The notes beneath the pieces were generated by a model. The model was not told the origin of the DNA. It saw only the letters and a list, made by a program, of their open reading frames with translations, and ran no database searches. The position numbers and the translations under genes were made by a program. This document shows positions 24,438 to 54,401 of a stretch of 64,000 nucleotides of DNA, one piece after another. Position 1 is the stretch's first letter. Each line of letters opens with the position of its first letter. Origin of the DNA: Candidatus Bathyarchaeota archaeon (lineage in GTDB: Archaea; Thermoproteota; Bathyarchaeia; Bathyarchaeales; Bathycorpusculaceae); contig CAVZIW010000003.1 in NCBI GenBank assembly GCA_963775465.1, forward strand, positions 320,001-384,000, written 5' to 3'.

Positions 24438-26396
24438 CTAAAGAAAAAGTGCTAGCAGCCTAAACGCTAAGCCCCCGATTAGAAGGGCGGCGCCTATGTT
24501 GGCTGCTGTAATCACCGTTGTGGCTTTCCAACCGAATTCTTTTGCGAGAATAGCCATTGTCGACAAGCACGGTATATACAGCATCGCTACAAGCGCTATA
24601 ACAATCAGCTGGATCGGTGTAAAAAAGAGACCCAGATTGGTGGAGCCAAAAATTGCTACCGCACCCAAAATAATTAGTTCTTTTCGTACCACGCCAAGAA
24701 CTAGTAGAATTCCAGCAGCAGCTGGCAGTCCAAGCCACAAAACAGTCAAAGGTGACAGTGCATTGCTAATCGGCGTTATCACATTGTAGACATAGAGCGC
24801 TTGAACCAGAGCACTGCCAACGATGTATATGGGAAAGACAATGTAGATTATTGATTTGGTTCGTGTCCAAGTTTGCTTTGCTACAATCCTTATGGAAGGT
24901 CTTTTGAAAGAACTCATTTCCATGATTAAGCCTGTAGATTTACCGGGAACAACCTTCATGGCGACTCTGCCTAAAGCGAAGATAATGGCAATATCAACAA
25001 CGTAGAGAAGTAGTGCCCATTGTATGCCGACAAATAATCCAACCATGCCGAACAGCACAATTGTTCTTGCTGAGCAAGGCGCGAATGTTATGGCAAAAGC
25101 TGCTAAAAGTCGTTCTCGTCTGGTTTCCATAATTTTACATGCGTGAATTGCTGGTACACTGCACCCATAGCCAAGAATTATTGGAATTAGTGCTTTTCCG
25201 TGTAAACCCATTTTGTGCATTGCGCTATCCATCATAAACGCCACTCGTGTTAGAACACCCGAATCTTCAACTACCGCCAAAAGAAAATAAAACGGGATAA
25301 CGAATGGGATGATCAAGGTCAAACCTGCATTGAATCCGCCCCAAACCCCATTCAGAATTATCGACAAAATTGGTTGGGATGCCGACAAAGCAGGGTCAAC
25401 AGGTTTGATTACACTCAACGCCCCTGAAATTAAGTTTGATAAACCATTACCCACAAAAAACGTCCAAAGCAACAAACCAGCAATGACTCCAACTGCAGTG
25501 AAATATCCCAAAATATGATGAGTAGTTAACCACTCAAGCTTGTCGGAAAAAGTGCTTTTCACTTCGCTTTGTTGAAGAGCAGACGCTGCGATAGAATTCG
25601 CAATGGCATAACGTTCAGACGCAATGACTGAAAAGCATGCTTCTTGACAAAGAGTCGACATTTCCTTCGATATTCGTAATGCAGACTCTATAGTCACCTT
25701 CGATTGGGCGGAGACCATCTTAATAATTTCTGTATCGCCTTCCAGTAACTTTATAGCAAGCCACCGAGGCGGATAATTAAGTTGAATCCCTTCTCTTTCA
25801 ACAATATTTTCGAGCTTTTTAATGCTCTCTTCAACGTTTTTTCTGTAATTTAGAGGTTGCGTTTTGGGATGGGAAAGAGCAACATTCACCGCTTCGCCCA
25901 TGAGTTCATAGATTCCCTCACCACGGGTAGCAACAGTAAACACGACTGGAACGCCCAAAGCTTCCTGCAACTTTTCTTTGTCGATAATTATGCCTTTTTT
26001 CTTAGCTTCATCCACTTGGTTTAAGCAAACAACTAATGGGGCGCCCATTTCAATTAGTTGTATTGTAAAGAAAAGGTTACGTTCAAGAATCGAAGCATCA
26101 AGTACATTAATTACAACATCAGGCTTCTCAAGAGCTATATAATCGCGTGAAACAAGTTCTTCCATCGAAAAAGTTGAAAAAGAATAAATCCCAGGCAGAT
26201 CAATTACCCTAATATCATAACCTTCATAGTGCAAGGTACCTTCTGCGCGGTCAACAGTTTTTCCCGGCCAGTTTCCGATAATCTGATTTGAACCAGTTAA
26301 CTGATTGAAAAGCACGCTTTTTCCGACATTAGCGTTTCCAGCTAGTGCTGCAGTAAATAAATTTCTGTCTGTTTTGTTATTTTTCTTATCAGTCAG
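24438..26396 (-). CDS. feoB: Ferrous iron transporter FeoB
   Basis: G1 GNANVGKS (upstream of the track start), [20 protein letters not shown] and YIPC; the frame extends to CTG 26396 behind SD GGTGA. Confidence 0.92.
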
Positions 26397-26420
26397 AATA
26401 ATTAATCACCTAGACTTTTC

Positions 26421-27134
26421 TTAACCTTGAGGATCAACGAAAACTTTTGAGGCTATACCTCTGCCTAATGCCAATTTAGAGCCTCGAACTAAAACTTGAA
26501 TGGGGCCCTCGAAGGGTGCTGCTTTAATCAAGGTTATTTTTGTACTAGGGGTTAGCCCCATATCTAAGAGTCGTTGAAGAACATTATGACCGCCTCTAAT
26601 GAAGGAAATTCTGCCAGTTTGTCCTTCTTTGAGTTCGCTTAAAGCAATGAGGTTTTCTCTTCTCTTACCTACTTCTTCTAGACCTTGATTGTGGAGTTGG
26701 ATGCATTCTTCGCAGCTAGAAAAAGGTAAGTTGCATGCTGGAATTGTCTCGCCATCGTCAGAACATGTATCGGGATGTTTTAAGAAACGGCATAACGATT
26801 CTTCTGCCTCGTCGGAGAGGGTATGCTCCATTTGGCAGGCTTGGGTATGGACTTTATCTTTTCCTATGTGCAAGATGTCTGACAGGAAGGTTTCAAGTAA
26901 GCGGTGTTTTCGGGCTACTTTTTTTGCTTCTTCAAGACCTTTTTCGGTGAGGGTGCTGCCGTGGTAAGGTGAGTAGTCTATGTAACCTTCGTGAGCGAGT
27001 TTCTTGAGCATTTCAGTGACGCTAGCTGGAGCTACGCCTAGTTTTTCAGAGATTTCTGTTGTGTTAACGAGTTCTTCGTTTTTTGACAAACTGTAGACAG
27101 TTTTTAAGTAGTCTTGGGTTGATTTTTGTGCCAT
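26421..27134 (-). CDS. DtxR/MntR-family metalloregulator with C-terminal FeoA domain
   Basis: DYLKTVY, ASVTEMLKKL, RKHRLLETFL, MEHTLS; FeoA-like RLLDMGLTP...ALGRGIA. Confidence 0.9.
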   Translation of the reverse strand: MAQKSTQDYLKTVYSLSKNEELVNTTEISEKLGVAPASVTEMLKKLAHEGYIDYSPYHGSTLTEKGLEEAKKVARKHRLLETFLSDILHIGKDKVHTQACQMEHTLSDEAEESLCRFLKHPDTCSDDGETIPACNLPFSSCEECIQLHNQGLEEVGKRRENLIALSELKEGQTGRISFIRGGHNVLQRLLDMGLTPSTKITLIKAAPFEGPIQVLVRGSKLALGRGIASKVFVDPQG

Positions 27135-47952: not shown

Positions 47953-48009
47953 TCCTATTCTAAGTCAAATTTCAAATCAATTTAATACTTTTGGGAATCA
48001 CACTCTAAA

Positions 48010-48113
48010 CTATTCATAGCCAAGGTTGGGGCATTTCTCAGCTTTAGAATCTATCTTAGCTTTACATTGTGGACAAAACTTTGTATTTCTTTTTTAACAA
48101 TTGGCTCCTTCAC
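48010..48113 (-). pseudogene. Zinc-ribbon remnant
   Basis: NTKFCPQCKAKIDSKAEKCPNLGYE*: the fourth Cys is lost and there is no in-frame start (frameshift in an A-run). Confidence 0.5.
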
Positions 48114-48226
48114 AATAAGACCCAAAATACTGTTCAACTTGTTTTAGTTAAAAGGTTTTAGTTAACGTATATGAGATAGTCTCCATTTGAAGCCTCTAAA
48201 ATCAGTCCCAAACTGAAGGATTACAG

Positions 48227-48659
48227 ATGAAGTATAAATGTGTTAAATCTGTGTGTGAGGTTTGTGGTAAAGTCTCTACTATTCAGTTATTTTTCAGAAG
48301 CATCGGAGAGTTAGCGTATGGCAGAGCTAGACACTATTTAGGTAAGAAGGAAGATAAACCTCAGTTTGAGATATCATCCTCAAAGCATAGAGACTCTGAA
48401 AACTTTATTAAAAACACAATCTATCTCTGTGACTACTGAAAAGGCTAATGATGGTCATATAGGTCACCTGCAGAATGATGACCAACTTGAGCATGAAAAT
48501 AGCCTTAAACAGCAAAATAGTTGGGGCCATCGGCTAGCTTGGTCTAGGCTTGTAGACTTGGGCTCTATAGACTCCGGTTCAAATCCGGGTGGCCCCACCA
48601 TATCATTTCTGGATTTAACCCTGAATCGTCTTCTTCAAATCAAATTGGATGATTCATAA
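48227..48659 (+). pseudogene. Frameshifted ORF reading through tRNA-Pro; possible integrase N-terminal fragment
   Basis: ORFs 48227-48439 and 48366-48659 join (..KPQFE/YHPQS..) if one base near 48371 is removed; the frame stays open across the tRNA. Confidence 0.5.
48523..48600 (+). tRNA. tRNA-Pro(TGG)
   Basis: GGGGCCA/TGGCCCC acceptor with ACCA end, GTAGA-CT-TGG-GC-TCTAT anticodon arm and TTCAAAT T-loop. Confidence 0.93.
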
Positions 48660-48862
48660 GTGTGGAAATTGCTAGAAGAAACATCGACTGTTCTTATCTA
48701 TAACTTTTAAGTGGTATGACGCTGTTTTGAAACAGTTTTTTTGCTTTTCTAATTTAACTATGGCCGATCTGGAATCTGCAAATTTGATATGCTAAATTTT
48801 GAAATGTGTTTTATAGCAAGTTTTATCTTGTTAGATTTTTATTTATTAAAAGGGGAACATTT

Positions 48863-49009
48863 GTGACTAAGGAGAAAGCGAAAATTAGGATTATTTTTTT
48901 ACCTTTTGCAATTGTTTTTTGGGGGTTGGGCTGGTTTTTGAGTTCTGTCGGTGAAAAAAAGTCAAAGAAAGCAAGTGTTAGCTTTTCTCATTTTTCGAGA
49001 AAGCATTAA
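48863..49009 (+). CDS. Small single-TM protein
   Basis: GTG start after GGGGA; hydrophobic IIFLPFAIVFWGLGWFL flanked by basic residues. Confidence 0.5.
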   Translation: MTKEKAKIRIIFLPFAIVFWGLGWFLSSVGEKKSKKASVSFSHFSRKH

Positions 49010-49102
49010 TCCAAAATCTGTTTACCAAATTTGTTGTGTCTTTTTGTAATCACACATATTCTTATTCGTTAATTTGTTAATAGTTAAGAGGAGAATGAAA
49101 TA

Positions 49103-49309
49103 ATGACTGTTGTGAAAATAGTTGAGTTAATTGGGACTTCACCAAATAATTGGGAGGAAGCTGTTAAGAATGCTTTGGCGCAGGCGGCAAAGACAATTAA
49201 AAATATCAAGTCTATTTATGTTAAAAGCTGCAAAGCAACGGTAGAGAACAACAAAATTGCAGAATACCGAGCTGTAGTCAAAATAGCTTTTGTCGTTGAA
49301 GGCAGTTAA
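49103..49309 (+). CDS. Dodecin family flavin-binding protein
   Basis: KIVELIGTSPNNWEEAVKNAL..A.KT...EYR...KIAF. Confidence 0.9.
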   Translation: MTVVKIVELIGTSPNNWEEAVKNALAQAAKTIKNIKSIYVKSCKATVENNKIAEYRAVVKIAFVVEGS

Positions 49310-49586
49310 GATACTGCTATACTGTTCCTTTTATGCTCCTCGAACTAACTGTTTCAGTTTTGTCTGTGGTACTTTTTGTTCATTAAGGTAGGTGACTATG
49401 AACTTTGGGTTACCCAAGGTTTAGCTGTAACTTTGTTTGAAAGAACGTAGTTTCTGATTAATTGTTAGAATTTTGTTCCTTAGTATCTGCTTATGGGACC
49501 ATTTATATTTAGAAAAAGCTTGTTTTGGTGCGATAATCTTCTAAATTATTATAGTTGAAGAACTATGCATCTTTAGGGACGATAAT

Positions 49587-49847
49587 TTGACGAGTGATTA
49601 TGAGCCTAAACGTTTTGCTGTTAATTTAGATAACTTGGATTTTGCTAAAATCAAGCGGGTGGGCGATAAAGTTATGCAAATGTTAAACAAAAAAGTGAGT
49701 AATCCGGTTGAGGCATACTTTCTTCTTAAATTGTTGTGTTTCTCCATTGAGGCTTCTGAAGGTTTTAAGTTGATGCCTGAAGACGAGGAAAGATTGCGGG
49801 AACTTTGTTTTAAGCCATCAGGGACTGATTTAAAAGATACTCCTTGA
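49587..49847 (+). CDS. Hypothetical protein
   Basis: 86-aa ORF with SD-like AGGGA and a TATA-like TTATTATA upstream. Confidence 0.5.
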   Translation: MTSDYEPKRFAVNLDNLDFAKIKRVGDKVMQMLNKKVSNPVEAYFLLKLLCFSIEASEGFKLMPEDEERLRELCFKPSGTDLKDTP

Positions 49848-50067
49848 TATGGTGTAAAAATGATAAACGGGTAAGAGTTGTGTGGATATGCAAGTGTGAT
49901 GGCGAGCCACCAATGCATTCCCTCTTAACCCAAACTGTGGTAAGGTAGTTTTTAGTCTAAAGCTTTGTGAAGCTTGAATTCATATTAGCAATCAGTTTGA
50001 CGAAAAATTAGATTTTTGCTGATAGATTAGCGTTTTGTTGTTTTGTGTTTTTGAAGATTAGGAGGTT

Positions 50068-50131
50068 GGGTCAGCGACGATTGACGATTTCTCACAGCCT
50101 AGGGCTCGAAGCCGTCGCCTCACATCATCCC
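50068..50131 (-). ncRNA. Probable C/D-box guide sRNA
   Basis: Minus strand reads GGG-ATGATGT(C)-guide-TCGA(D')-GCCCTAGGC-TGTGAGA(C')-guide-CTGA(D)-CCC; a GC-rich island in an AT-rich spacer. Confidence 0.65.
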
Positions 50132-50605
50132 GCGCTTAATTTGATGTAGGGGCGGATTTATCTATTTTGGGTTCGGGATAAAATATTGCAAAGATTAAAG
50201 AATAAATGTCAATTACGAAACAACTTGGTTTATGAATCTTGAGCTCGGGTGTTGCGGTTTTGGCGGCTTCTGATTTTAATATTACGGCTTTATTTGAATA
50301 TGCTGGTATAGATTGTTGGATTTGTGCTGTCTTGTCTGGTTTGGTTGCATTGCAGTTGCACTTTGTCCCAATAGTTATTCTTGAGGTGCAGGGTACAGAG
50401 CTGCGAATATTGATAGAACTATATCAAGTGTGTTTTCTTTTTTGTTAAATTATGTTTCTCAAAAAGAGTACAAAAAATAGTGCACAAAACATGTTTTTCT
50501 TGGGAGCTTGTTGAGCGATTAACGTCAGTTGACGAATCTAAATGTTTAAACTTACGTAAGAGCAGGGTATCCTAAATGCTGTTTCGTTGGAGGTGAAAAG
50601 GTTAC

Positions 50606-50674
50606 ATGATATTCGAAGAAGATGAGGAATGGGAAGAGGGCGAAGATGAGGAATGGGAAGAAGAAGAATGGTAA
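50606..50674 (+). CDS. 22-aa acidic Trp-repeat micropeptide
   Basis: MIFEEDEEWEEGEDEEWEEEEW*, with SD GGAGGTGA, TATA-like TTTAAA near 50545 and downstream T-tracts. Confidence 0.65.
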   Translation: MIFEEDEEWEEGEDEEWEEEEW

Positions 50675-50832
50675 GCTAGCTCTTAGTGCGAAAATTTTGT
50701 AATCTTTCTTTAATTTTAATTTCTTCTTGTTTATTTTTGATTTATTTTTTTGTTGCCGATTGGATTAGTCTTGAGTTTTTTTTGGGTTTATATTTATAAC
50801 TGACTTGTGGGATTCATTAATCGAAGTTTATC

Positions 50833-52686
50833 ATGACGCGGATCGCTGTCTTAAACGCCGACAAGTGCAAGGTCAAAAAATGCAATCAACTTTGCGTAAG
50901 CTATTGCCCCATGGTGCGGAGTCGAGTGGAAGCTATACGCGTGGAGGGTAACAAAGCTCTTATCTCTGAAGTGCTTTGCAGCGGGTGTGGTATCTGCGTC
51001 AAAAAATGTCCTTTTAAGGCCATTAGTATTGTGAATTTGCCTGATGAGCTTGAAAAGGATTGTAGTCATCGATTTAGCGCTAACAGTTTCAAGCTTTTCC
51101 GTTTGCCTATGCCTTCGCCGGGTACTGTTTTGGGGTTGCTTGGGCAAAATGGAATTGGAAAAAGTACCACATTGAAGGTTTTCTCAGGGGAAATTAAGCC
51201 TAACTTGGGTAAATTCGATTCTGCACCTGACTGGCCGGAAATCATTCAGTACTATCGCGGTTCTAGCTTGCAAGATTATTTTCAGAAGTTAAGCAAGAAT
51301 CAACTTAAAGTTAGCAGTAAACCTCAGTATGTTGATAAGATTCCTAAAGCTGTTGAAGGTAAAGCTGGAGATTTACTGGAAAAAGTTGATGAGCGTAAAC
51401 AGCTTGATGCGATTGCTGAAGAGTTAGAGCTTAAGAAAATTTGGGATCGTGCTCTTGATGTGCTTAGTGGTGGGGAGCTTCAGCGTGTTGCGGTTGCGGC
51501 GGCTCTTAGTCGTGATGCGGATGTTTATCTTTTTGATGAGCCTTCGAGTTATTTGGATGTGAAGCAGCGTCTTGTGGTTGCTAGGGCGATTCGTAGCCTT
51601 AAGGAGCAGCAAAAAACTATAGTTGTTGCTGAACATGATTTGGCTATTATCGATTACTTGTCTGACCAAATCTGTGTTTTCTATGGTGAGCCGGGAGTGT
51701 ATGGTGTTGTTTCTCATGTGCATGGTGTGCGTACTGGCATTAACATATACCTTCAGGGTTACATAGCTGATGAGAACATTTTGTTTAGAAAAGAATCTAT
51801 TGTTTTTCATGAGAAACCTCCAGCAACTGCAGGTACCCTGATTGGTGAGCCTTTGCTCAAGTGGGATAATATGGAGAAGACCTTCCAAGGCTTCAAACTT
51901 GCCATCGAACCAGGAGAAATCAGGGCTAGCGAAATCATCGGAATTCTTGGACCCAACGGGATAGGTAAAACAACTTTTGTTAAGATTCTTGCGGGTCTTG
52001 AAGAAACTGACGATAAACGTCAGCTTAGTAAGTTAACGGTTAGCTATAAGCCTCAGTATATAGCTCCAGATTATGAAGGTACCGTGCAGGAGTTGTTGAT
52101 GAATGTGGCAAAAGATAACTTTACTTCTAGTTGGTATAAAACCGAAATTGCTCAGCCCCTTCGGCTTCAAGTTTTGTTGGATCGTAACGTAATGGAGCTT
52201 AGCGGTGGGGAACTTCAAAAAGTTGCCATAGCTGCTTGTCTTAGCCGTAAAACCGATCTGTTCCTGCTCGATGAACCTAGTGCCTATTTGGATGTTGAGG
52301 AGCGTTTAAACGTTGCAAAGACGTTGCGGCGTGTGGTCGAGGCTCATGGAATTCCTGCATTTGTTGTTGAACATGATGTTGTGACGCAAGACTTTATCGC
52401 TGATCGTCTCATGGTTTTTAATGGGCAACCGGGTGAGAGTGGAAAAGCTCATCCTCCGACAACGTTGCGTGCCGGGATGAATACATTCCTTAAAGAAATG
52501 GACATTACTTTCCGACGAGACTCAACTACCTTCCGGCCTCGTGTTAACAAGGAAGATTCACAGATGGATAAGTTCCAAAAAGACATCGGTGAATATTATT
52601 ATACAAAAGTAACCAGAGACAAAGACGAAAAAGAGGATAAGGCTGCAAAAGAGGCTTCAAAGAAGATGGAATCAGCTAAGAAATAG
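50833..52686 (+). CDS. rli: Ribosome recycling ABC ATPase ABCE1/Rli1
   Basis: N-terminal Fe-S domain (CSGCGICVKKCPF) and two ABC domains (GQNGIGKS, GPNGIGKT, LSGGELQ twice). Confidence 0.96.
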   Translation: MTRIAVLNADKCKVKKCNQLCVSYCPMVRSRVEAIRVEGNKALISEVLCSGCGICVKKCPFKAISIVNLPDELEKDCSHRFSANSFKLFRLPMPSPGTVLGLLGQNGIGKSTTLKVFSGEIKPNLGKFDSAPDWPEIIQYYRGSSLQDYFQKLSKNQLKVSSKPQYVDKIPKAVEGKAGDLLEKVDERKQLDAIAEELELKKIWDRALDVLSGGELQRVAVAAALSRDADVYLFDEPSSYLDVKQRLVVARAIRSLKEQQKTIVVAEHDLAIIDYLSDQICVFYGEPGVYGVVSHVHGVRTGINIYLQGYIADENILFRKESIVFHEKPPATAGTLIGEPLLKWDNMEKTFQGFKLAIEPGEIRASEIIGILGPNGIGKTTFVKILAGLEETDDKRQLSKLTVSYKPQYIAPDYEGTVQELLMNVAKDNFTSSWYKTEIAQPLRLQVLLDRNVMELSGGELQKVAIAACLSRKTDLFLLDEPSAYLDVEERLNVAKTLRRVVEAHGIPAFVVEHDVVTQDFIADRLMVFNGQPGESGKAHPPTTLRAGMNTFLKEMDITFRRDSTTFRPRVNKEDSQMDKFQKDIGEYYYTKVTRDKDEKEDKAAKEASKKMESAKK

Positions 52687-52874
52687 ATAACGCATAGGTT
52701 TAGCTGTCAAACCATTAATTTTACATTTTTAGCGCAAAAATATTCATGTAAGTCTGTCTCCGTGTGCTTCTAAAACGTGGCTTTTATACTTAGAGTGCAG
52801 TTAACTTAAAGAACCACCAACAAATATACTTAGCATTCGCAAAAACAAAACGGGGAAAGTGGTGTAAGCAGCAA

Positions 52875-54401
52875 GTGGCTCAAGCAACATTCGAAGAAAT
52901 TTCGGCATCTGACTTTTTTTACCGTAACCGTGACATCGCAGGCTTAACAAACCCCTCGCGTAGCATCTTTGTTGCCATTCGTGAAGTTGTTGAAAATAGT
53001 CTTGACGCTGCTGAGAGCCAAAAGATTCCTCCGAATATTTATGTGCGTTTGTCTTTTGAGTCAGAAGCAACTAAGGCTACTCAAATCTATAAGCTTCATG
53101 TTGCAGACAACGGCAGTGGGATTCCTCCAAAGTTTATCCCTTCCGCGTTTGGACAGGTTCTCTATGGCAGTAAGTATAAGCTCAAACAGGCCCGAGGTAC
53201 TTTTGGGCTTGGTGGCAAGATGGCGGTGTTGTATGGGCAAATCACTACGCACCAGCCTGTTTTTGTAACTTCGAGCACTGGGCAGGAAAAAATCTACAGT
53301 TTTAAACTGATGATTGATATCCAGCGGAATAGGCCTATAATTTTGGATCGTAAAGTTCTGATAAATAAGGATCGTTGGCAGGGAACAATAATTGAGTTCA
53401 CGTTGGAAGGTGACTATTTGCGTGCTATGCCTAAAATTATTGATTACTTTAAGCAGACAGCCATGGTTAACCCGTATGCAAATATCACTTTTGTGGATCC
53501 TAAGGGTAGGCTCTACAAGTTTGTAAGGGCAACAACAGTTATGCCTGATCCGCCCAAAGAGACTATGCCTCACCCTTACGGTGTTGATGTTGAGTTGTTG
53601 CAGCGGCTTATCCAAATTACTGAATTTAATAACATGAGTAGTTTTCTGAGAGGGCATTTTCATAGAGTCGGGGAAATTACGGCGCAAAAGTTTTTGGATT
53701 TTGCTGGTATCTCTCCGAAGAAGAATCCGAAAAAACTTGCTCATGAAGAAATAGTGCGGTTGATGCAGAACCTTAAAAGGTTTAAAGACTTCCTTCCGCC
53801 CGATGCTAACTGTCTTTCACCTTTGGGTGAAGAGTTGCTTAAGGCTGGTGTTGTGAAAGAGTTAAACCCTGAGTATTTGGTTGTGCATCAGCGTAAGCCT
53901 TCAACTTATGCAGGTCATCCGTTCATTGTGGAGATGGCTATGGCTTACGGTGGGAACGTGCCTAAGAGCGGTACTTTTGTTATCTATCGTTTTGCTAACA
54001 AAATTCCGCTTCTTTATGATGAAGCCAGTGATGTTTCTTATCGTGTGATTTCGGCTATGAATTGGCGTCGTTATAAGGTGCATCCTGAGATGCCGATCGC
54101 TATTGTGGTGCACATTTGCAGTACCAAAGTGCCCTACAAGACTGTGGGCAAGGAATTCATAAGTGATCGTCCCGAAATAAGGCGGGAGGTTGCGAATGCG
54201 CTTAGGGAGGTTGCACGGCAGATTCAGCATTTTCTTGCTAGGCAAGAGCATGTTCATATGGAGAAGAAGCGGTTGGGGATTTTTAGCAAGTTTCTGCCTA
54301 AGATCGCGGAGTTTTCAACTATTCTTGCGAGGCAGGAGAAGAAGCCTGATATCGAAAAATTACTAAAGAGTGTGCAGAAGTATGGATCAGAAGAAAGCTA
54401 A
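52875..54401 (+). CDS. top6B: DNA topoisomerase VI subunit B
   Basis: EVVENSLDA, DNGSGIP, RGTFGLG and RFANKIPLLY motifs. Confidence 0.96.
   Translation: MAQATFEEISASDFFYRNRDIAGLTNPSRSIFVAIREVVENSLDAAESQKIPPNIYVRLSFESEATKATQIYKLHVADNGSGIPPKFIPSAFGQVLYGSKYKLKQARGTFGLGGKMAVLYGQITTHQPVFVTSSTGQEKIYSFKLMIDIQRNRPIILDRKVLINKDRWQGTIIEFTLEGDYLRAMPKIIDYFKQTAMVNPYANITFVDPKGRLYKFVRATTVMPDPPKETMPHPYGVDVELLQRLIQITEFNNMSSFLRGHFHRVGEITAQKFLDFAGISPKKNPKKLAHEEIVRLMQNLKRFKDFLPPDANCLSPLGEELLKAGVVKELNPEYLVVHQRKPSTYAGHPFIVEMAMAYGGNVPKSGTFVIYRFANKIPLLYDEASDVSYRVISAMNWRRYKVHPEMPIAIVVHICSTKVPYKTVGKEFISDRPEIRREVANALREVARQIQHFLARQEHVHMEKKRLGIFSKFLPKIAEFSTILARQEKKPDIEKLLKSVQKYGSEES

Follow-up and report, generated by a model that had tools for sequence, protein, structure and literature searches.

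Does the short interval directly upstream of the gene for the ribosome-recycling ATPase ABCE1 in a Candidatus Bathyarchaeota archaeon hold a gene of its own and, if so, what might its product do? The question is raised by a stretch of 64,000 nucleotides (nt) from this genome (GenBank assembly GCA_963775465.1, contig CAVZIW010000003.1, positions 320,001 to 384,000 of the forward strand), here called the window, with coordinates counted from its first letter. The original prediction, made from the letters of the window alone, placed in that interval an unannotated micro-gene for an acidic, tryptophan-bearing peptide. An open reading frame (ORF) of 22 codons plus TAA, opening with ATG, does lie at 50606..50674 (+), and its translation, MIFEEDEEWEEGEDEEWEEEEW, is exactly the peptide claimed. 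The micro-gene is a real coding gene, conserved among relatives, equipped with expression signals of its own and linked to ABCE1. We hold with high confidence that 50606..50674 is an unannotated protein-coding gene; automatic annotation misses it because it comprises only about 22 codons. Its product is probably a helper of protein synthesis. ABCE1 is essential in archaea and eukaryotes, and we know of no dedicated archaeal accessory protein for it.

The peptide is dominated by acidic residues (17 of 22, with EEDEE at residues 4-8) and contains no cysteine, lysine or arginine, which puts it out of reach of trypsin-based proteomics; it has a short hydrophobic N-terminus (Ile-Phe), a Trp every 5-8 positions and a Trp at the C-terminus. 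The internal EDEEWEE repeat that had been noted corresponds to a 24-nt direct repeat coding for EDEEWEE(G/E), whose two copies (50618-50641 and 50642-50665, +) are 88% identical in a repeat analysis, and the family alignment shows that it mirrors the acidic-run-plus-Trp repeat building the whole peptide family. The signals predicted around the frame are likewise present. A Shine-Dalgarno (SD) site, GGAGGTGA, occupies 50589..50596 (+), 9 nt 5' of the ATG. The TATA-like element, TTTAAA, about 59 nt 5' of the ATG, belongs to a genus-conserved block, CG.CA.TTGACGAATCTAAAT..TTTAAAC, which the genus alignment places at 50523..50551 (+; the portion TTGACGAATCTAAAT..TTTAAAC at about 50529-50551) and which, by its position and sequence, is a putative promoter. 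Three T-tracts follow the stop codon on the same strand, T5 at 50734-50738, T7 at 50745-50751 and T8 at 50776-50783. Oligo-T tracts terminate transcription in archaea, and those after the micro-gene are likely to be such termination signals. The distance to ABCE1, given as about 160 bp, measures 158 nt from the micro-gene stop codon to the ABCE1 start. ABCE1 itself, a twin ATPase of 617 amino acids (aa), spans 50833..52686 (+) and is preceded by a TATA-like box of its own, TTTATATTTATAA, at 50787..50799 (+), about 40 nt 5' of its ATG. Judged by domain content and alignment its identity is certain: Pfam recognizes Fer4_RLI, Fer4 and two ABC_tran stretches, and residues 1-590 align to solved ABCE1 chains with E-values down to 9e-202 (phmmer against the Protein Data Bank, PDB).

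The evidence that the frame codes for protein comes from its variation among relatives. ABCE1 was located in 40 relatives (41 of 41 genomes, counting the window's own) and the 1500 nt upstream were inspected for 30; 21 loci belong to the same genus. The micro-ORF was found in 19 of these 21, the two exceptions being L015, with just 139 nt of upstream DNA, and L009 (genome G013), in which the frame lies 2.2 kb upstream. Over the last 19 codons of the 19 loci the variable sites at codon positions 1, 2 and 3 number 0, 0 and 12, and the last 14 residues are identical in 19/19. Since the loci were found via ABCE1, the third-position count is independent of the peptide, the Trp..Trp-stop anchor that sets the frame excepted, and it is this pattern that upholds the proposal of an unannotated peptide gene. 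The ORF is 92% identical between genus members as against 38% for the flanks, a comparison that is weaker because its loci were pre-selected by a regular expression for the peptide. When 12 closely spaced genus loci are aligned, the ORF, the SD site, the upstream block and a T-rich stretch right after the stop codon stand out from poorly conserved surroundings. The SD, in the form GAGGTGAAAA, is invariant in all 12 and the promoter block nearly so, the DNA further upstream being unconserved. Also kept in 12/12 is the ABCE1 box, GGTTTA.ATTTATAACT, about 35-40 nt before the ABCE1 start, and similar A/T boxes lie 5' of ABCE1 in Acidianus and Aramenus loci.

A wider search was run at the DNA level with the motif [DE][DE]W[DE]4W followed by TRR, the reversed motif serving as control. 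The window contains a single match to the motif, GANGANTGGGANGANGANGANTGGTRR, against none in 100 shuffles, and the 2.4-Mb genome to which the window belongs has one copy. Within the order it is found in 63 of 201 genomes (64 matches, none ending in TGG) and in a phylum sample in 41 of 301, once per genome except for G167 (two places) and G418 (where a further copy, internal to the frame, is read as TGG); the reversed motif is found in 0/201 and 0/301. A stop codon follows the final Trp in 64/64 order-level and 41/42 phylum-level matches, its identity varying between TAA, TAG and TGA from lineage to lineage, and the lone phylum-level TGG comes from a repeat within the same ORF.

These data bear on the possibility that there is no gene at all, only a frame left open by chance where a DNA or RNA element is rich in purines, for example a GAA-rich repeat with a regulatory role in the ABCE1 promoter region. 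Open frames do arise easily in purine-rich tracts, which have few stop codons, and the 24-nt tandem repeat might serve as a binding site. That explanation is contradicted by variation solely at third codon positions, by an SD at fixed distance, by a stop after the last Trp in every lineage while the three stop codons interchange, by the empty reversed control, and by an amino-acid pattern that is kept though the DNA differs between classes. On the sequence comparisons it is close to refuted, and we consider it very improbable.

In the window's own family 44/53 genomes carry the motif; elsewhere in the order it occurs in 8/54 genomes of family f7 and 1/47 of f11. In other classes of the phylum it was found in 8/14 genomes of f20, 4/5 of f32, 5/10 of f33, 2/3 of f34 and 2/20 of f27, as well as in f50 and f54, and in the phylum sample 0/44 genomes of f19 carry the motif. 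A scan of all prokaryotes with one genome per species matched at least 118 loci. Among the matches listed, 93 are short frames (at most 75 in-frame codons), nearly all from Bathyarchaeia or Bathyarchaeota (including Bathycorpusculum) and from Thermoprotei records, the named Thermoprotei carriers being Acidianus copahuensis, Aramenus, Ignisphaera, Hyperthermus, Pyrodictium delaneyi, Thermogladius and Desulfurococcaceae metagenome-assembled genomes (MAGs). In a set of 93 distinct family members, most have GGAGGTGA or GGTG before the start codon. A further 26 of the listed matches are not short frames: six have TGG for the stop and the others are ends of longer frames, mostly in bacterial records, and the bacterial ones are regarded as unrelated. 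Three of the 26 are archaeal, namely L120 (Bathyarchaeia), L165 and, in Ignisphaera, L144, which repeats the motif inside a frame already included among the short ones. A few of the listed short frames come from bins named Nanoarchaeia, Krumholzibacteriaceae and Nitrososphaerota; mis-binning or misnaming is suspected, because the ABCE1 of the Nanoarchaeia-named bin is 81% identical to that of the window.

Over 104 distinct peptides the family consists of 63% Glu, 16% Trp and 6% Asp, with lengths of 15-37 residues (mode 22) and usually one to three hydrophobic residues after the Met. The C-terminal E-E-W ending is constant in strict-motif members by construction of the search, and since members outside the strict motif exist (e.g. 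L022, L023, L024 and L030), the motif counts are lower bounds. In some Bathyarchaeia a second acidic Trp micro-gene, more diverged, is found apart from ABCE1 (L121, L178, L141, L158 and L094; e.g. MFEEEEEGEEESTEEDWEEEDW); in L121 the gene next downstream of this copy, about 820 nt off, encodes a TPR protein.

If the micro-gene is real, is its place beside ABCE1 more than local accident? A search among relatives had been put forward as the check on the original prediction, and it shows that frame and SD are conserved and that the linkage with ABCE1 extends over Bathyarchaeia and into several families of Thermoprotei. Linkage was assessed for the 63 listed short-frame loci with at least 2.5 kb of sequence, 30 others having too little flank. 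Of the 63, 53 have ABCE1 on their 3' side in the same orientation (median gap 162 nt; 40 within 300 nt), 2 are divergent from it and 8 have no ABCE1 within 2 kb, counts that take in kin, which are not independent. Outside Bathyarchaeia, the phylum sample contains 25 carrier genomes. ABCE1 is directly downstream, at 45-377 nt, in 12 of them, which are all the carriers of f32 (4), f33 (5) and f50 (3), and it is divergent at 600-800 nt in 2. Set beside the 63 listed loci, 11/11 further genomes of three non-Bathyarchaeial families show the same-strand downstream position at 45-377 nt, and the adjacent pair is present in 3/3 more Thermoprotei records (Pyrodictiaceae, a Sulfolobales MAG and Ignisphaera). 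The pairing of micro-gene and ABCE1 is old, because the ABCE1 of Sulfolobales-, Pyrodictiaceae- and Ignisphaera-type genomes is just 41-54% identical to that of the window. The gene on the other flank varies by lineage, with asparaginase, M20 peptidase, FBPase, RpiA, THUMP, CGI-121-like and DUF2204 genes all represented.

A short same-strand ORF this regularly and this closely 5' of ABCE1, in the 53 listed loci as in the 11 further genomes, could also be a cis-acting leader or upstream ORF. The behaviour of ribosomes on the acidic frame, or at its stop, would then set transcriptional read-through or re-initiation into ABCE1 and so provide feedback on a splitting factor. The micro-gene resembles leader peptides of translation-ABC ATPase genes in being a short ORF directly 5' of a twin-ATPase translation factor. 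Its size is in keeping as well, since 20-37 codons are typical of regulatory peptides. An acidic codon run right after the start would be intrinsically hard to translate: consecutive N-terminal acidic residues are described as destabilising ribosomes, and the bacterial ABC-F twin ATPases as dealing with such sequences (PMC9718836, PMC12673854, PMC11162784, PMC11282234). The Asp/Glu run near the N-terminus of the micro-peptide matches these sequences of the intrinsic ribosome destabilisation type, a match of composition only.

The micro-gene differs from such leaders in having its own conserved promoter and T-tracts, next to an ABCE1 with a conserved TATA box of its own, and in persisting when inverted, separated or unlinked; an obligate 5' position on the same transcript and strand is thus not what is found. 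Separation is seen in seven same-genus loci with gaps of 350-920 nt between micro-gene and ABCE1 and the same peptide. Gaps of 845-918 nt characterize L007, L008, L012, L013, L016 and L017, same-genus loci of this long-gap kind, and in the long-gap loci sampled a co-directional gene for a PIN-domain (VapC-like) protein stands between the two (L099:2379-2801, L103:1159-1581); several species of the genus have this insertion. In some Thermoprotei a gene for a TFS/RPB9-like zinc ribbon intervenes (L064), or stands divergently to the micro-gene (L097, L191), and the peptide is unaltered by the PIN or TFS-like insertions. It is also kept where the micro-gene is divergent with respect to ABCE1 (L097, L132, L191 and L193), and unlinked second copies exist. 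Eight Desulfurococcaceae-type loci carry a conserved gene of about 165 aa convergent at the micro-gene 3' end (L190:983-1492, L192:920-1432, L194:980-1495, L196:995-1495, L197:1534-2019, L136:903-1388, L097:1513-1995, L191:1536-2063), so that the nearest downstream gene is not co-directional there; in L136 an 80-aa same-strand ORF of no family follows about 330 nt further on. The 165-aa family has the common motif SRF[RK]NKGLLL and no Pfam match. It was considered as the upstream neighbour of other Desulfurococcales, but BLASTP gave no match at E<=0.01 between the two neighbours, and because of this an in-place inversion cannot be claimed.

RNA folding of 50572-50840, from the SD to ABCE1, is less stable than that of shuffled sequences (z = +2.21), and therefore gives no attenuator-like structure. 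Moreover, a sensor of composition alone would need neither invariant Trp positions nor a C-terminal Trp. The micro-gene appears to be expressed independently of ABCE1 transcription, because it has a separate promoter, SD and T-tracts, ABCE1 has its own TATA box and the peptide is kept despite insertions or unlinking. A leader function is accordingly judged unlikely, though the idea carries real weight, and a trans-acting peptide is favoured over it because the peptide is retained despite inserted genes, divergent orientation and loss of linkage.

What might such a peptide act on? We tentatively suggest, at somewhat less than even chances, that it works in trans with ABCE1 or its ribosomal complex; trans action, ABCE1 as candidate partner and the mode of docking are all inferred. 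Probably transcribed and translated independently, the 22-residue, almost pure Glu/Asp peptide would target the translation machinery, with ABCE1 or the small subunit bound by ABCE1 as the likeliest contact. A basic surface would receive its acidic runs, and hydrophobic pockets its Trp side chains. Two known interactions offer a template. In the archaeal ribosomal stalk protein aP1, the C-terminal 18-mer forms an induced helix that sits in a surface cavity on nucleotide-binding domain 1 (NBD1) of archaeal ABCE1, with L103, L106 and F107 making the contact, and ATPase activation depends on it (PMC6125642). A second paper describes the N-terminus of eIF3j as reaching the NBD1 side of ABCE1 in yeast 43S complexes, its authors noting the similar position (PMC7780240). 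With its acidic runs, helical-type Trp spacing and hydrophobic ends, the micro-peptide may occupy an NBD1-type site. It would then amount to a free copy of a factor-docking tail that competes with, or stands in for, the aP1 and eIF3j tails, with the result that factor recruitment and ATPase activation are tuned during ribosome recycling. Co-folding of a 36-aa family member (L072) with its neighbouring ABCE1, both supplied as alignments, returned scores of 0.00 and 0.00 in runs without controls, which weigh on neither side of the binding question.

A more specific version would make the peptide a free-standing translation factor of Thermoproteota, a diffusible acidic/aromatic tail that binds ABCE1 NBD1 or the ABCE1-30S post-splitting complex, gates the hand-over from recycling to initiation and is a functional forerunner or analogue of the eIF3j acidic Trp motif. 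We rate this version as improbable.

The likeness to the aP1 tail, and to eukaryotic P1/P2, lies in an acidic, unstructured chain with a hydrophobic or aromatic end; the micro-peptide shares the acidity, has hydrophobic and Trp anchors, and its gene neighbours that of ABCE1. In contrast to the aP1 tail, which is part of a ribosomal protein of about 100 aa and uses Leu and Phe, the peptide stands alone, is much more acidic and relies on Trp, and it has no sequence match in Pfam. The original prediction had drawn attention to eIF3j (Hcr1 in yeast), and this acidic-Trp analogy is the best functional lead, as judged solely from composition and gene neighbourhood. A conserved Trp is reported for the N-terminal acidic domain of eIF3j (PMC2824034). 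The two share acidic-Trp composition and an association with ABCE1, which for the peptide is genomic only. They differ in that eIF3j is a much larger, dimeric helical-bundle protein, for which 22 residues leave no room. The eIF3j Trp is reported to bind the RRM of eIF3b, which archaea lack. Homology with eIF3j/Hcr1 was rejected, given the absence of a Pfam match and a length too short for the bundle, and because of these two points the peptide is an analogue of eIF3j at most.

Two further comparisons in the original prediction fared less well. The first was with Lto1 and the C-terminal signal that recruits the Fe-S (CIA) targeting complex. The eukaryotic signal is C-terminal [LIM]-[DES]-[WF]-COO- (PMC10245660); the peptide end E-E-W fits 2 of 3 positions and fails at the third from the end, and the sole DUF59/Cia2-type gene of the genome lies on another contig. 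The comparison with acidic motifs of the WASP family found no support.

DSS1/Sem1 (PF05160) is a eukaryotic, very small, highly acidic and disordered adaptor with conserved Trp residues that clamps onto basic surfaces. The peptide is similarly free-standing, very small, highly acidic and Trp-bearing, whereas DSS1/Sem1 is about three times longer and has no known link to ABCE1. Membership was rejected, as no Pfam match was obtained for the window peptide (E<=0.01) or for four longer members (E up to 1). LysW/ArgW proteins also have an acidic C-terminal tail with Trp, LysW ending in EDWGE, but they possess a zinc ribbon and a terminal Glu that carries the substrate. This candidate was discarded too: the window peptide has neither Cys nor ribbon and ends in Trp, the NCBIfam LysW models are unmatched, and there are no lysine or arginine biosynthesis genes near the micro-gene in the window. 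A Nitrososphaerota MAG encodes a 73-aa protein (L165:106-324), 75 kb from ABCE1, in which a LysW-like zinc ribbon is joined to an acidic Trp tail ending in EEEEW; the ribbon scores 25.9 bits with Zn_ribbon_LysW, just below the cut-off of 27.

More generally, the window peptide matches no Pfam family at E<=0.01, the four longer members match none at E up to 1, and NCBIfam has no matching model for either. By these tests it is not a member of DSS1/Sem1, LysW or eIF3j, because no Pfam or NCBIfam model matches. Searches by similarity were hampered by the composition of the family. A word search of a protein database with the 50-residue in-frame stretch of L072 gave 1600 candidates, none at E<=0.01, composition correction blinding the search; a profile search of the PDB with the family gave 0 matches at E up to 10, probably for the same reason; and a composition-blind profile search of five genomes without the strict motif, run without a positive control, likewise gave 0. 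The ESM Atlas holds the 36-aa L072 member letter for letter as a hypothetical protein, with uninformative neighbours scoring <0.8. We found no published description of the peptide in the literature, a search that left aside the supplementary tables of archaeal transcriptome and small-proteome papers, which could hold it. As far as searched, then, the gene family is undescribed, although its kind, that of small acidic disordered adaptors and acidic/aromatic factor-docking tails, is known.

The resemblance to DSS1/Sem1 leads to another explanation, in which the peptide is a general polyanion with a partner other than ABCE1. It could, for example, serve very basic proteins (ribosomal, RNA-binding or DNA-binding) as a chaperone or nucleic-acid mimic, or buffer polyamines or cations. 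The ABCE1 neighbourhood would then be inherited gene order, with a loose link to translation at most. The Glu- and Trp-rich, DSS1/Sem1-like composition fits this, as does the retention of the peptide in several Thermoprotei families that have lost the ABCE1 linkage and in second copies. In two f27 genomes the gene directly after the micro-gene encodes S-adenosylmethionine decarboxylase, an enzyme of polyamine synthesis (L188:1593-2000, L189:1650-2045), which would suit a polyamine buffer and may be chance. On the other side, ABCE1 is the sole neighbour conserved from Bathyarchaeia to Sulfolobales-, Pyrodictiaceae- and Ignisphaera-type genomes while the other flank changes, and the retention of a pair with separate promoters over such a divergence of ABCE1 would be unusual without a functional tie. 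We regard the polyanion explanation as rather unlikely.

Several observations weigh against a dedicated partnership of the peptide with ABCE1. No ABCE1 lies within 1.5 kb in 11 of the 25 non-Bathyarchaeial carriers (six of f20, two each of f27 and f34, one of f54), in addition to the eight listed loci without it within 2 kb, and second copies in some Bathyarchaeia are unlinked (L094, L121, L141). Conversely, ABCE1 does not need the peptide, because many families of the order, such as f11 and f7 with the low counts given above, have ABCE1 mostly without a strict-motif peptide; four loci of the same order have no peptide within 1500 nt upstream of ABCE1. Gene order shared among relatives is non-independent evidence, and the extreme composition makes any electrostatic partner plausible.

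Whichever partner applies, the micro-gene is kept next to ABCE1 in a large part of Thermoproteota, some lineages of which have cultivated members (Acidianus, Pyrodictium, Thermogladius). Should the peptide bind, ribosome recycling would gain a new player, and the acidic-Trp motifs seen in initiation factors of eukaryotes a possible root; should it not, it remains a clear example of a deeply conserved micro-protein missed by gene callers. The Trp residues are built-in fluorescent probes, and the question is directly testable with existing ABCE1 ATPase and splitting assays.

Further features of the locus and its relatives concern the surroundings of ABCE1. In the window, topoisomerase VI B and A are encoded downstream of ABCE1, and upstream are tRNA-Pro and a dodecin gene. 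The interval from the dodecin gene to the micro-gene contains two ORFs of 86 aa (49587-49847, +) and 69 aa (50239-50448, +) without Pfam match. An Rfam search of 48000-54000 returned tRNA-Pro only, and a search with four upstream regions from relatives returned no match. A conserved element of about 70 nt, ending ...CGCCGTCGCCACACATCATCCC, precedes ABCE1 in L026, L027 and L029; it is also present in L206 and L209, and these occurrences are in Bathyarchaeial families without the micro-gene or, in G033, upstream of the micro-gene. Read on the opposite strand the element, which has no Rfam match, is C/D-box-small-RNA-like, with ATGATG near the 5' end and CTGA near the 3' end.

The C-terminal tail of ABCE1 is Lys-rich in the window (residues 591-617, at 52606-52683, beyond the solved structures) and is 10-30 residues long in the genus. 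It is missing from relatives without the micro-gene, yet tails are highly variable, and those of some carriers finish in runs of Glu; as a correlate of peptide presence it was dismissed, no clear relation being apparent. Finally, a genome of the same genus (G008, locus L020) has two tandem ABCE1 genes, C8:22721-24547 and 24672-26483, which are 84% and 69% identical to that of the window, with the micro-gene before the first.

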